Below are positions 1,586 through 59,313 of a DNA stretch of 64,000 bases, in pieces. The notes below the pieces were generated by a model. That model was given only the letters and a program-made list of their open reading frames with translations, did no database searches and had not been told where the DNA came from. The translations under genes were made by a program, and so were the position numbers. The DNA comes from Kondoa subrosea. Taxonomy: Eukaryota. Position 1 is the first letter of the stretch. Every line of letters begins with the position of its first letter. The DNA is taken from contig BCIN01000008.1 in the NCBI GenBank assembly GCA_039545335.1, positions 248,001-312,000 on the forward strand, given 5' to 3'.

Positions 1586-1736
1586 GTCAACTGGAAGCAC
1601 AATGATGATCGATGATGATGGTCAACCCCATTTCGGATTCGCCTATTACATACACATTCTCCCGAATAAAAACATATGATTGTCCTAAACATCCTCTTTC
1701 CTTCTTTCTTATATACACACAATCTGCCAAGACTGT

Positions 1737-4700
1737 TCAATAAGTGTTCTTCGCATGCTTCAGTATTTCGGTTCTGGCTTTTTCTATGGCAGTTTCCCAC
1801 TCTAATGCTTGTCGTGCTGAACTGCATGCCAATTTGTAGCTATGACTTATGTGCAGTACTATGGCAGACGTTCAAAAATGAATTCTATCAAAGTACCAAC
1901 TCCGAAAGAACGTACCTGTAAATCGATCATCATCTCTGCTGCTCTTCAGCGAGCATTCTGTGAAATGATCAGCATTCGCAACCACTTCAGCAATAAATTG
2001 TACGAACCTTCAAGCGGTATAACCTATTAGAAAGCGTCAGAGGTTATTTCCCTCTGCAACTTCGAGCAGAACTCACATTGTGGTATATTACATTCTGAGG
2101 AGTGGTCAGAATGAGCATATCGTTTGTTAATATAGCATGTAATTCTTTTCCCGATCTTCTGGCTTTGAAAACCGTGCCTTCTTTCAGAATCGCTCGTCTT
2201 CCCATCAATCGTGAGGGTGCAGTGAGATCAAGTCCCTGCATTGTGACAATAGTAAGAGCTTTCTCCGGAGCACAGATCAGGATCGTACCATCTCGCTTCC
2301 CTCAAACACAATGGTATCAGACAGTTGACGTAATCGTTTCTGGTTCTCCGCCTGTTCGCAATGATCAGCTATTTTGATCATGATAAAGAGAAGGCACGAT
2401 TACTTCTCGTATCGTTTCATTCGTAGCTGTCAAGACTTCTTCGGCTATTCGTTGTACTTTCTTCAGATCGAGCCAATCAGGATTATCTTCGTCAGTCTAG
2501 CAACAGTATTAGCTTCTTTCGTGACGATGAGGATGGTCACATACGTAGCGTATGATCTGACCAATCAAGAGCGGATATCGTGTGAGACGTTGCATGGGCT
2601 GCAGTAAGAAGCTCTCCAATTCCAAATCATTCACACGCGACTGCGATTGAGATTATTGATACCGAAACAATCTTGCTCAAGTGATGCAAGCTTACCTCAA
2701 GAATGGCCGCAACTTTTGTGTCTGATGCTTTGAGCTCTTCTAGCATCTCGGCGGCGTTACTCTGATCTTTTCGTCAGTGACAGAACAGCCAAGATATTTA
2801 GCTGCAGACCTGATTTGAGCACTATGGTAATCAAAAAGCATAGATATTAGCGAATCTTGTTAATGCCGAAGAGTCTTTCGACGTACGTAAGGCCTATATA
2901 TGCCCAGATTGACCATATGCCGCAATAAGAGGTCGCCAACTACAGACAGGAAATCAACTCGCATCATGCTTGCAGCGGGACCACGTACTCTGTGCTATGT
3001 ACAGCCTGGCTGATTCTTGCCTAGCCTCTAGGTCGCTGTAGAAGATTGTATTGAAAGTCTGCGCCCGAGTGAGCTAAGTCAGTGACGTCGTAAGATCCGC
3101 ATACAAGAAGATCCTCGACTAAATTATGATTTAACAATGGAATCTATCAGTTTGAACGAGACGTACTATTCGCGAAGATAACTTGAGCAGCTTTGACACT
3201 GAGAATATCTTGCAAACGAGTGAAGAAGACATTGATAATCAGCTGCAAGGACTTGAGATATGTTCCTTCAGTTTGAATGAGCTCAAAGATGGCTTCTTGT
3301 CGTTTACGCTCGCGTTCAGGCAGCTGAGCCAGAGCTTCGGGATCAATCAAAGAGGACCACGTTGTGCCAACAGCAGCAACTGAAGACGATTCAGCAGGGC
3401 CACTGATGACTCTTGTTACGGAAGTATTGGGAGCTTTGCGATCAGTCATAGCTGTGCTGCTCCGGCCAAAGACAGAGGAGAAGAAGCTGGCTGTCTTGCT
3501 TTCTGTCGAATGCAGGCTGAGGTTAGGTGATCCACCATCTGCTGTTGGCGGAGTGCTAATACGGGGAGAAGGCGCAGCGAAGGAGTACCGAGAAGCACTG
3601 CACAGAGTCAGACGAGCGTCGACCGTCGAAGAATATTCTTACACTACAGGCGGTATCGCAGGTAGCTCCCGCTGGAGCGCAACCCAGCGATCATACGCAT
3701 CTTCAGTATTCTGCTGCACTTCAAATTCAGAGTAAATAGGCGAAGGTTCATTCTCTTCTTCGACAACACTTGGCTGTCTCGGCGGTGCAGGAGCTTTTCT
3801 TCGTCGTGTTGGTGTCCGCGATAGTACACCAGCTGCTTCAAGCACTCGTAGACGCTCCTTTTCTCGAGCCTCAGCTGACGGCTCCTTGTCATCAGTTTCT
3901 TCTTCGGAGTCCGAGTCAGCTTCATTCGGCGGCGATTGAGAGGCCAGCGTGTGATCCGGCGCAGAAGCGCTCGTCTTGGAGTTCGCTGACACAGACGATT
4001 TGTCTATGAGGCCAAGAAAGGTTGCAACATTATCGAACATCATATTATATTGCAATGTATTGGAAGGTTTGGAAGAATATGCAAAGAAATCATGAGTCCC
4101 GACCTTTAGCCAGATGCAGTGATTCACTGACTTCCTTCCACTTCAAAGTACATTGCTGGTACCAGTGCACATCGACCGTTGTTCTCTGCCTTCCACCAGT
4201 CCGTTTCTGAGTGGTCCACAATCTTGTATGATTTGCCTGACTGAAGATCCATCTCTTCTTCCGAGGCAGCTGAGTAGTCGTAAATTGCATTGGCATTAAT
4301 TGCTGGAAGGTTTTGTCAATAACATCCGCAAGATTCGAGAGACAGACTTACAATCTTCAATGGACGCAACGTAGTTGGCGGGAAGCCTATCAGAGTTACA
4401 GAGTGAGCTTCATGCGAATGCGAATGAGGCGACTGACCATCCGGACTTTCCGTCTTTCTCGATCTTGCCATATACCCAGTCGTCGTTGTCATTCGCCGGA
4501 TGCGTAGTAAGAATGACATGCTCATCGACAGAAAGATCATCCGGTCGATCAGAGGTCGCGGAGTATGCATATAAAGTACGCGATCTCGTCGCTATTTGGC
4601 TGGATCAGAAACAAAAGAAAAGCTGAATTGAGAAACTCACACCGCGAATAGTCGACACCAGCTACTTCGGAGGATACCAGCCCAACTGCAGCTGCAGCGT

Positions 4701-29277: not shown

Positions 29278-31722
29278 ATGACTACCCCTCGAAGCAAATG
29301 GGGCAAGATGGCAACAGTCTGGGCTTGTGGTGCTGCCTTGTTCTCAGATGGTTATGTTAACGCCAACGGAGGTTAGCGTCTCCACTCGAACTCTCTTGCA
29401 TCTCTCATTGTTAGTGCAGGAGCGTCCCGTTATGTGATCAAGAAAGCATATCCTGGCTCATACACAGCTTACTATGGCACACTGTTCTCTTCGCTCGTCT
29501 TTGTGGGTGTCATAATAGGACAAGTCTCTTTCGGTATTCTATGTGATCGAGTGGGACGCAAACCGGGAATGAGCAAGTTCCGATTTTGATTACTCAGCTG
29601 ACATTCACTAACTAAACATTACCTCTAGTCTTCGCTTCCGTCTGGTTGGCTCTCTTTTCTCTCATTTCTGCGCTCGCATACGGAGGTGACAATCCCGACA
29701 CATTGTACGTTTCGATCTTTGAGTGGACTGACATGAACAACACATTGACGTGTGTAACGTGATAGATGGAAATGCTTGATCGCCTACCGCTTTTTACTTG
29801 GTATCGGAATTGGAGCAGAATATCCATCTGGATGTGAGTAAATTGTACTTTCAACATTTCGAGCGCTGAAGAATAGCTACCGTTAGCCGTTGCTGCATCT
29901 GAGAATACCGAAGACAAGTGAGTTATCTAGCTGTTTACCAGCTCTGAAACTCTGCTAATATCTCAAAATTAAATAGCGGAGTGCCCAAAAAGCATCAACA
30001 GAAGCTACTGGTCGGCGCTACCAATTCTATGATCGATCTTGGATTTGTGGTCGCGTATTGTTTGCAACCTTTCTCAGCAGCCAGGACATTCGCTGATATT
30101 TATGCTTTTTGACTGCTACAGTGTATGCCCAAAGCCTTTTCAATAGTCACAATCTTCACTCATGCTTCTTAATTGCCATAGGGTGCCTTACTTCTGCCTT
30201 ATGATCTTTGGTGAAGGTCGCTTGGAATGGGTCTGGCGTCTTACCCTTGGTTTCGGTTTGATTGTGCCAATGCTAGTCTTGCCTTTCCGAATTGCTATGC
30301 GCGAACCAGCTCTATACCGCAATGGATCTATGCAACAATTGAAATTCATGGAACTGCCTTGGGCGTTAGTTGCTCAGCCGTTTTGCTTTCGCGCCGAAGC
30401 TGATTTTGGATGTGTCTTAAGTCTGACGTTCAAGAAATACTGGCCAAGACTTCTCGGAGTGTGCGCTGCTTGGTTTGTGTACGACGTAAGTTTAGATGTG
30501 ATGTTCTGGTGCATTGGAACTGATCAGTGGCACTCAGTGGGTCGCATACCCAGCTGGTATCTATTCGAGCAACATCGTCGACGCCATCATCCCTGAAGGC
30601 ACTATGTTGCAAGTTTTGGGTTGGGATGCCGTTATCAACGCTTTCTATCTCCCCGGTACTCTTGTCGGCTTGTTCTTCGTAGGTTCAAACAAGATCATGG
30701 CATTTGCTTGATGAACTGAATACTTTTGTATTAGGTTGATTGGCTCGGTCCCAAATATTGCATGATTGTCGGATTTGTTTGCCAAGCTATCATCGGTTTC
30801 GCCATGTCTGCAAGCTACGAGACTCTGCAAAAGAACATTGCTGGCTTCGCTGTTGTGTACGGAATCTATCTTTCGTTTGGCGGTAAGTTCTTCCGCCCCT
30901 TGTTGTCTGTCTGTTACTTATTATGCCTGTTAGAATTTGGACCTGGTAGGTCTACAAATCACGAGAGCCGCTGAATACTGATCATTGTAATGAAGGAAAC
31001 AATTTGGGAGTCCGTAAGTGCTCCTCAACAATCCGTTTCGATGGAGCTTACGCTTTTCTTGTTCAGTTGCTGCGAAGGCCACTGGTCCATCAGCCGTCCG
31101 TGGTATCTTCTACTCGATCGCTGCTGCAATTGGAAAAGTTGGAGTGAGTTTGACACCTCAGTGCAGTTGTATAGCATACTCACAATCCTTTATAGGCCTT
31201 CGCTGGTAGTTATCTCTTCGTATGTTGTTGCGTCCGACCTCTTTTTTTTCGTGGGCTGATTTGTTTCAGACCGATATTATTACTACTTTCGGTGGTGCGG
31301 GAACCAAGAAAGGAGACACCGGACCTGTATACATCGGGTCAGGTTTGGCTTGTGAGTTTGTGCACGCTCCATTCTACAACCAGTCTGATCAACGACCTAT
31401 GTGATAGTGGTCGCTGCTGTCATTACATACTTTATGAGTACGCTCAAGTCTTGCTCTCCGTTCTCGTTTATTGACATCATCTTCAGTTCCAAACATCAAA
31501 ATCGATCACATGACTGATGAAGATGAGATCTACCGTGAGTCTGCTGTGTTGCCCAAACATTGATCTTGCTTACGTCTCGGAACAGGTCAATACCTGGAGC
31601 AAAACGGCTTCGATACTACTCGTATGGGCGCTATCGCGGCTAAGAAGACCGATGCCGAAAGCCTGGATGACAAGCCCAGTCTTGGTCGCTCGGACAGTGA
31701 CGAGAAGGTGACTCATATCTGA
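29278..31722 (+). CDS. GIT1: MFS glycerophosphodiester/glycerophosphoinositol permease (Git1-like); highly fragmented by introns
   Basis: [82 protein letters not shown]. Confidence 0.85.
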
Positions 31723-58247: not shown

Positions 58248-59313
58248 TTAGGGAAGCCTCTTTCCATCATCGCCATATACAAGTACTCCAGCGCATCGTT
58301 TCTGTTCTGTCAGTGCTGCACGTAATTCGATCAATCGGGACTTCCCATCGTGCTGATAATAGTGTCCTGATAGCCAGGCATATTTGACCACATTGTTCTG
58401 ATCGACATAATGCAACAAAGGCACTTCCGAGACCTTTTCTATGCCATCTTTGTCCTTGATGATGATCCGACGAGGCATTTCTAGAGCATGACCGCGCAGG
58501 TAAGGATCGGTAGGCGATGGATAACGAATTATCGTAACATTCTCTCGGGGTTGACCTGCGTGTTTGTAGTCGTGAACTTCGAAATAATCGATCTGTTGGC
58601 CTCCTGATACAATGCTATCGTGCCTATAGCAGAAGCGCTGATGAGGTCCAGAAGGTTCAATGATGGTTGGCCAGTGTTCGGGTTTATTGATAAGATCCTT
58701 ATGCTGTTGATGAAAAGCTTCCGAATTCTGCAAATGACTTTACTGACAGTGATTGAGCACACAGAGAGAGATACTAACTCTAGGCTGCATGCCCTGGGCT
58801 TCTTCCAATTGCTTTCTGTTCGAACGCAGCTCGTCAGGGAATTTGCCCTGCGGTACAATTCAGCTGTATCGGTGCAGATTGGAAAGGGCTTACATCCGGG
58901 AATAGCTGATATATGCTTTGCCATTCTTGATCGTGGCTATACGCAGAAGCAGTATGAAGTTGGGCCAGGCTAACAGGGTTCTGCTTGTCTAGTACATTGA
59001 TTTGAGTCCTTGCTGGCGTGTATGGATTGTTCTCGTCCATCAAGGACCTTTGAGGAGCATGAGCAGACTCATCTAAAGGCGTATCGACAGGCAGATTACG
59101 GATACGGCGCATAGTCTCTGAAGATACTGTTGAAGAAGGCGAGATGGCCCGGGCAGGTTGACCAAAGTTATGGACAGGAGAAGGCCCGACGTGATGAGAG
59201 AAGTCATCTTCCAAGTTCATACGTCCTCGGCGAGCGCTATATCGTTGGTAGTCGTGAGCACCAGGGAAGTCAGCATCAGGAAAGTCGCCATATCCGTGAT
59301 AAGGTAAAGGCAT
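58248..59313 (-). CDS. Hypothetical protein
   Basis: Three exons join in frame via GTAAGC..CAG and GTTAGT..CAG introns. No family recognised. Confidence 0.55.

Follow-up and report, generated by a model that had tools for sequence, protein, structure and literature searches.

Can a single nucleotide serve as an internal exon of a fungal gene, and does one stand in the permease gene of the 64,000-nt stretch of Kondoa subrosea DNA analyzed here (contig BCIN01000008.1, positions 248,001 to 312,000; hereafter the window)? The gene resembles permeases of the Git1/Pho84 type within the major facilitator superfamily (MFS), and around position 30122 of the window its coding frame is interrupted by what looks like two short introns standing one base apart. 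We consider it very likely that the T at this position (T30122) is a genuine one-base internal exon of the permease gene, and from the comparisons described below we infer that the mature mRNA carries it. Among the literature surveyed, this appears to be the first one-base exon noted in the Pucciniomycotina. The argument turns on the following elements, given in window coordinates.

29278..31722, plus strand: Git1/Pho84-type MFS permease gene, which in the one-base-exon model comprises 19 exons, 18 introns and 489 codons plus stop.
29977..30059, plus strand: exon 6, which ends in phase 1 with ...GCG TAT T.
30060..30121, plus strand: intron i1, 62 nt, GTTTGC...CTACAG, with a CTGAT branch-like motif.
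30122..30122, plus strand: the proposed one-base exon T, predicted from sequence as the middle base of a Leu codon T-T-G.
30123..30181, plus strand: intron i2, 59 nt, GTATGC...CCATAG, with a degenerate branch motif (CTCAT or TTAAT-like).
30182..30364, plus strand: exon 8, which starts in phase 2 with G GTG CCT TAC... and is 85% identical over 61 residues to the homologous protein P0001.

The sequence anatomy between 30059 and 30182 is exactly as the initial annotation had described it. In CTACAG-T-GTATGC a single base is left, with AG upstream of it and GT downstream, and each of these belongs to a complete intron. In both introns the donor carries G at +5 and the acceptor is YAG, and no AG intervenes between the CTGAT motif of i1 and its acceptor. 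Exon 6 leaves off in phase 1 and exon 8 takes up in phase 2, so that exactly one extra base is required to keep the frame. Unspliced read-through of the region is closed, and direct joining of 30059 to 30182 shifts the frame into a TGA at 30202-30204, which bears out the earlier statement that a splice from 30060 to 30181 would be out of frame. T30122 divides the 122-nt gap into two introns of a size that is normal for this gene.

Which residues belong at the junction can be read from homologous proteins. A search with exon 8 returned four longer proteins at E ≤ 0.001 among 20 candidates, and across the junction all four read ...AYLVPYF.... With P0001 as the query, 663 proteins were found at E ≤ 0.001 among 7,994 candidates; the best 120 of these 663, together with P0004 from the exon 8 search, make up the 121 homologues that were aligned by MAFFT with two competing models of the window product. 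Both columns that a single-intron model would delete are filled in all 121. The nine closest of the aligned proteins (P0001-P0008 and P0011) carry Tyr-Leu at these columns, and the second column holds Leu or Phe in 120 of the 121. The GFVVxxxVP spacing, which the initial annotation had given as typical of Git1-type permeases, holds in this alignment. In a tblastn comparison of P0001 with the window, the protein aligns up to Tyr169, whose codon ends at 30058, and again from Val171, whose codon starts at 30183, leaving exactly one residue, Leu170, unplaced. With T before it and G after it, T is the one middle base out of four that yields Leu. The contig that encodes P0001 (L001) provides an intron-free reference: its frame is uninterrupted, Leu170 is the sole residue without a place, and all 121 homologues are ungapped here, so that one codon spans the gap.

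How many other ways of splicing this region exist was asked by enumerating, within 30000-30260, all GT-AG or GC-AG solutions with introns of at least 35 nt. There are 95 single-intron and 514 two-intron solutions (609 in total), 106 of them open. The open solutions were ranked by their score against a hidden Markov model (HMM) built from the 121 homologues. The one-base-exon model of the permease reaches 735.1 bits, the top score of the 609, and is the sole canonical solution that is colinear with all 121 homologues. The second-best open solution, at 729.4 bits, would remove a single 118-nt GC-AG intron (30064-30181, donor GCAACC); it keeps both the Tyr and the Leu and inserts a Cys between them. 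A GC donor as such would not be foreign to the permease, which does have one GC-AG intron at 29573. Yet GCAACC lacks the G at +5 that is found in that donor (GCAAGT), an extra residue at this place occurs in none of the 121 aligned homologues, and the intron would again be twice the normal size. We regard this solution as scarcely credible.

Size and donor composition likewise fit two introns. The 16 other permease introns measure 48-61 nt, against 62 nt for i1 and 59 nt for i2. All 16 of their donors, including the GC-AG donor GCAAGT, have G at +5, as do those of i1 and i2. The same preferences are visible across the window, where intron-like candidates were defined by a donor with G at +5, a CTRAY branch motif and a YAG acceptor: there are 46 candidates of 45-54 nt against 18.1 in a Markov control and 29 of 55-64 nt against 20.1, and there is no excess at 125-134 nt (24 against 18.4 +/- 4.3). 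When donors are paired with a branch motif and an acceptor at 45-64 nt, only those with G at +5 are in surplus across the window (75 against 34 in a background bin); donors with A, C or T at +5 show none. The proposal of the initial annotation, a one-base exon at T30122 and a Leu codon put together from three exons, is thus supported by the 121 of 121 homologues, by the best score among 609 solutions, by the intron sizes and by the G at +5.

Several observations weigh against the one-base exon. By position weight matrix (PWM) both of its donors are weak, at 0.89 for i1 and 2.80 for i2 compared with 5.35-10.59 for the 16 others; the value for i2 rises to 3.95 once i1 has been removed. No clean CTRAY branch motif is found in i2. 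The AG-N-GT pattern is common by itself: if YAG-N-GTnnGn is required to have a partner donor and a partner acceptor at a distance of 45-70 nt, both strands of the window together contain nine occurrences, compared with 7.8 +/- 2.6 in 30 controls obtained by Markov shuffling. The Leu codon of L001 is CTA and not TTG, and the contig is therefore silent on whether relatives share the split codon or the two-intron structure. Lastly, an in-frame single-intron alternative exists, with the donor that the initial annotation had pointed out:

30055..30181, plus strand: rival single intron, 127 nt, donor GTATTG, which would remove Tyr-Leu.

According to this alternative the permease is made without the Tyr-Leu pair and the internal AG-T-GT is never used. 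In its favor the solution is in frame and open, and the weakness of the i1 and i2 donors and the frequency of bare AG-N-GT both speak for it. On the other hand, it would yield a protein lacking two residues that are missing from none of the 121 aligned homologues, and its HMM score of 724.8 bits is 10.3 bits lower than that of the one-base-exon model. At +5 its donor carries T, against G in all 16 others, and its PWM score is -2.92; its length is twice that of the largest of the 16 other introns; and each of its halves is a complete copy of a recognizable intron family, to which we return below. We consider the 127-nt intron improbable. As for the AG-N-GT pattern, it is no rarer than chance when taken bare, and its significance rests in its position: the context goes beyond chance because the pattern sits where one conserved codon, that of Leu170 of P0001, is unaccounted for. 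The other AG-N-GT sites with partners lie at 2549, 3606 and 49420 on the plus strand and at 58779, 33152, 32748, 3643 and 1801 on the minus strand; the one at 3643 looks, by eye, like an ordinary donor preceded by TAG-T.

The exon model of the permease gene was assembled from coordinates, with the ATG at 29278 and the stop at 31720-31722. Its product and P0001 have the same residue in 429 of the 490 columns of their alignment, which shows a single gap, of one residue, close to the N-terminus. P0001 itself matches the Pfam families Sugar_tr (PF00083, 3.8e-34) and MFS_1 (PF07690, 6e-18); of three single window exons submitted to Pfam none gave a match, the exons being too short. By full-length similarity the window gene is a member fitting the Git1/Pho84-type MFS permease family, its substrate being a prediction. 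Genes of this type are, as a rule, controlled by phosphate. Named relatives are annotated at their source as glycerophosphoinositol permease or 'related to GIT1' among the matches listed, and the nearest of them, again among the matches listed, come from Meredithblackwellia eburnea, Pseudohyphozyma bogoriensis and Phenoliferia psychrophenolica, the first and third of which belong to the Kriegeriales (Microbotryomycetes). A metagenome scan yielded 20 loci. Its three closest matches (L001-L003) are short contigs that have no introns and resemble transcripts, that of P0001 (L001) being 1,636 nt long with an uninterrupted frame, and the remaining loci are relatives at 32-45% identity whose matches are also uninterrupted.

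A different reading of the locus holds that it is defective or mis-assembled, either because the splice from 30060 to 30181 is simply frameshifted or because a base is wrong, the T flanked by AG and GT then being a coincidence. This would agree with the absence of any protein identical to the window product among the matches listed in two database searches. Against it stands the state of the rest of the gene. Apart from the one-base-exon site, each of the 17 remaining junctions is intact, as is the frame over all 489 codons, and both are colinear with a relative that is expressed. Compared with L001, the proportions of nonsynonymous and synonymous differences (pN 0.095, pS 0.696) correspond to a nonsynonymous divergence (dN) of 0.10 and a synonymous one (dS) of about 2, which is saturated, and this is the mark of purifying selection. 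Because of this difference and the 17 intact junctions, the comparison indicates a maintained gene under purifying selection rather than a decaying pseudogene, an indication with which a lesion of very recent date or an error of assembly stays compatible. Coincidence would, moreover, have to supply the one base in four that gives Leu and at the same time two normal-sized introns. We grant this reading only a slim chance.

The permease gene is unusual in other respects as well. Its intron density is extreme, with 18 introns for a coding sequence of 1,470 nt, or about 12 per kb; the current mean of eight Pucciniomycotina species has been put at 2.8 per kb (PMC8476143). Colinearity with the homologues requires three microexons on the plus strand, at 30934-30945 (12 nt), 30996-31013 (18 nt) and 31196-31219 (24 nt). 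The GC-AG intron mentioned above spans 29573-29628 on the plus strand (56 nt, donor GCAAGT); splicing at 29573 is the only choice that keeps ...GRKPGM-IFASVW... colinear with P0001, and a nearby GT (GTTCCG) breaks the frame. Among the homologues, P0008 is labelled Gonapodya prolifera, a chytrid. It is 65% identical to P0001, ranks amid Pucciniomycotina proteins and, among the best 120 of 663, outranks every Agaricomycotina and Ustilaginomycotina match listed, which is odd for its taxonomy.

How could a one-base exon be spliced? The simplest mechanism that we can propose begins with two ordinary short U2-type GT-AG introns of 62 and 59 nt, one base apart, with T30122 included constitutively between them. 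The Leu codon would be built from three exons, namely the T of exon 6, the T of the one-base exon and the G of exon 8, and the assembled Leu would be the second residue of the conserved Tyr-Leu pair in a transmembrane helix. Each intron of about 60 nt may be recognized singly by intron definition, after which the two would be removed one after the other; removal would have to be consecutive because the acceptor of i1 and the donor of i2, lying 1 nt apart, cannot be occupied simultaneously. Whichever of the two goes first, the remaining intron keeps its own motifs intact. Intron definition with stepwise removal is also the model proposed for the one-base exon of Arabidopsis APC11 (PMC4674806).

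Two more elaborate mechanisms were considered and rejected. An RNA structure that brings splice sites together is not suggested by folding: the 141-nt region folds worse than all 200 of 200 shuffles (z = +2.89), and single introns are unremarkable (z-scores of +0.55 for i1, +1.34 for i2 and -0.47 for the related intron x introduced below). A search of 29900-30300 for Rfam families gave no matches at E up to 1. The initial annotation had also been reminded of fungal stwintrons, a resemblance that does not survive inspection. Both introns possess intact motifs before any splicing takes place, and neither interrupts the donor, branch or acceptor of the other. The nested readings that were tried, with an internal intron at 30121-30181 that makes a new AG or with an external donor at 30055, lead to a frameshift or to a deletion of two residues.

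A one-base exon that is real could still be regulated. Its skipping, by joining 30059 to 30182, would shift the frame and introduce a stop eight codons on, in the manner of an unproductive-splicing switch, a proposal that is inference throughout. The early stop at 30202-30204 does result, and the weak donors of i1 and i2 might permit such regulation. The 122-nt joining would, however, have to compete with two normal-sized introns in a genome of short introns, and the documented plant case is described as constitutive (PMC4674806). We regard regulated skipping as unlikely, and constitutive inclusion of T30122 is the mechanism that we retain.

Where did such an arrangement come from? The two introns are the most similar of the 153 pairs of permease introns, narrowly so (score 10 against 8), with 41 identical positions in 66 columns, a similarity matched in 4 of 2000 shuffles. 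A best-partner score of at least 10 is nevertheless reached by 25% of 150 intron-like candidates. Tandem duplication was rejected as the sole story for i1 and i2, given that their mutual similarity is weak alone and becomes convincing only through a third intron:

2822..2886, minus strand: intron x of an intersectin-like DH/RhoGEF gene, 65 nt, phase 0, a relative of both i1 and i2.

When i1 and i2 were compared with the 229 other intron-like candidates of the window, x scored 19 with each, the next best scores being 9 and 11. Identical aligned pairs number 44 of 61 between i1 and x and 43 of 59 between i2 and x, or 72-75% identity over aligned pairs, and none of 5000 shuffles reaches either score. 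Against the 16 other permease introns, x scores 4 at most. The similarity thus links two unrelated genes that lie 27 kb apart on opposite strands. A profile of the three sequences run over the 64 kb recovers i1, i2 and x only, the next match having E = 0.16, and neither blastn-short nor the profile search found further copies of the family in the window.

Independent evidence concerns x as an intron. For each of the four homologues tested, the alignment reaches 2887, precisely at the donor of x, and resumes after a 12-nt exon and another intron. An exon upstream of x has a weak Pfam RhoGEF match (E 1.8e-5; its 25.5 bits fall slightly short of the 27.6-bit cut-off), and homologues of the x-bearing gene carry PF00621. 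Going by this context, x is a real intron of a gene unrelated to the permease. The gene around it (1700-4300, minus strand) likewise looks densely interrupted; colinearity with its homologues requires a 12-nt microexon (Cys-Ser-Asn-Gln) at 2810-2821 on the minus strand, directly after x.

Judged from these alignments, i1, i2 and x clearly form a small family of related introns. Their kinship suggests that the one-base exon arose when two copies of one intron family came to sit one base apart, whether by two insertions into the same codon or by a copy landing beside its parent. It is possible, although we would put this forward only tentatively and with less than even confidence, that the exon came about as a side effect of intron gain, i1 and i2 being copies of a dispersed, self-copying family that includes the better-preserved x. 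If this were true, an intron-dense Pucciniomycotina lineage underwent, or is undergoing, an introner-like invasion, and one-base exons would be footprints of intron invasion and not rescued frameshifts.

The practical consequences are more immediate. Standard gene callers cannot place a one-base exon, and the permease would be annotated as truncated, as frameshifted or as lacking two helix residues, a difficulty that is likewise stressed for Fusarium and for Coprinopsis (PMC12940212, PMC12230235). Introns of 62 and 59 nt that lie one base apart also offer a compact natural substrate for the study of removal order under intron definition. In addition, the kinship of the flanking introns with x provides a concrete and testable origin, which differs from the idea of base loss plus a cryptic exon put forward for Fusarium, and the three introns hint that a lineage of basidiomycete yeasts may possess an intron family.

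How does the permease compare with one-base exons known elsewhere? That of Arabidopsis APC11 is confirmed by RNA and constitutive (Guo and Liu 2015, PMC4674806). As in the permease, the single base is needed for the frame, and intron definition with stepwise, recursive-like removal was argued; the identity of the base is reported there to be irrelevant to splicing. The case differs in its plant host, in its much longer flanking introns (one region of 422 nt) and in its proof by reporter constructs and cDNA.

A close parallel is the gene CYP621A of Fusarium (Nelson and Syed 2026, PMC12940212), known from 20 orthologues of the Fusarium group with SRA reads for two species, which its authors count as the second case known overall and the first from a fungus. 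Like the permease, it is a fungal nuclear gene in which a single base stands between two short GT-AG introns and forms the middle of a conserved codon, and it was found through flanking exons that are one base out of phase, the intron being otherwise 'twice the normal size'. The base of CYP621A is a G, which in AG-G-GT fits both splice consensus sequences, whereas that of the permease is a T. At least 20 orthologues share the Fusarium exon, and SRA reads confirm it, whereas that of the permease is predicted from sequence comparison and in a basidiomycete host. Origins differ too: its authors favor the loss of a base followed by the adoption of a cryptic exon, whereas the introns flanking the permease base are relatives in sequence.

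One-base exons had been called very rare in the initial annotation. Rare they are, but the 'very' has to be tempered in view of the long-read annotation of Coprinopsis cinerea, which reports 13 of them in 13 genes, about one per thousand genes (PMC12230235). This fungus shares with Kondoa subrosea its basidiomycete affiliation, its short introns and its many microexons; it belongs to the Agaricomycotina and not to the Pucciniomycotina, and the comparison is one of counts and not gene by gene (PMC12230235). With stwintrons (PMC8469720, PMC5587772) the permease shares two packed U2 introns and consecutive splicing reactions. There, the external intron has its donor, branch or acceptor split by an internal one, whereas i1 and i2 are complete and merely abut.

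The origin that we propose invites comparison with introner-like elements (PMC3609843, PMC4457414, PMC12130899), with which i1, i2 and x share the occurrence of similar introns in unrelated genes and of two copies in one gene. Such elements occur by the hundreds per genome as almost identical copies, are longer than regular introns, have a stable predicted secondary structure (PMC3609843), and are said to degenerate until they resemble regular introns. In contrast, i1, i2 and x are known as three copies from 64 kb that are 72-75% identical, they are of normal length (62, 59 and 65 nt against 48-61 nt) and have no stable fold, and neither target-site duplications nor terminal repeats were seen. 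Introners have been reported in basidiomycete fungi generally (PMC12130899), and in the accessible portion of a 2022 introner screen the Pezizomycotina are the only fungi named (PMC9860276). None of the papers listed in a search for introners in Microbotryomycetes, Rhodotorula, Leucosporidium and Kriegeriales contains the word, although the supplementary species lists of two of these studies may name such taxa (PMC9860276, PMC12130899). Compared with these systems, one-base exons are already known, and what is new here is that the flanking introns are related to a third one elsewhere; this relatedness seems most worth following, since through it the origin of such an exon becomes testable with a whole genome.

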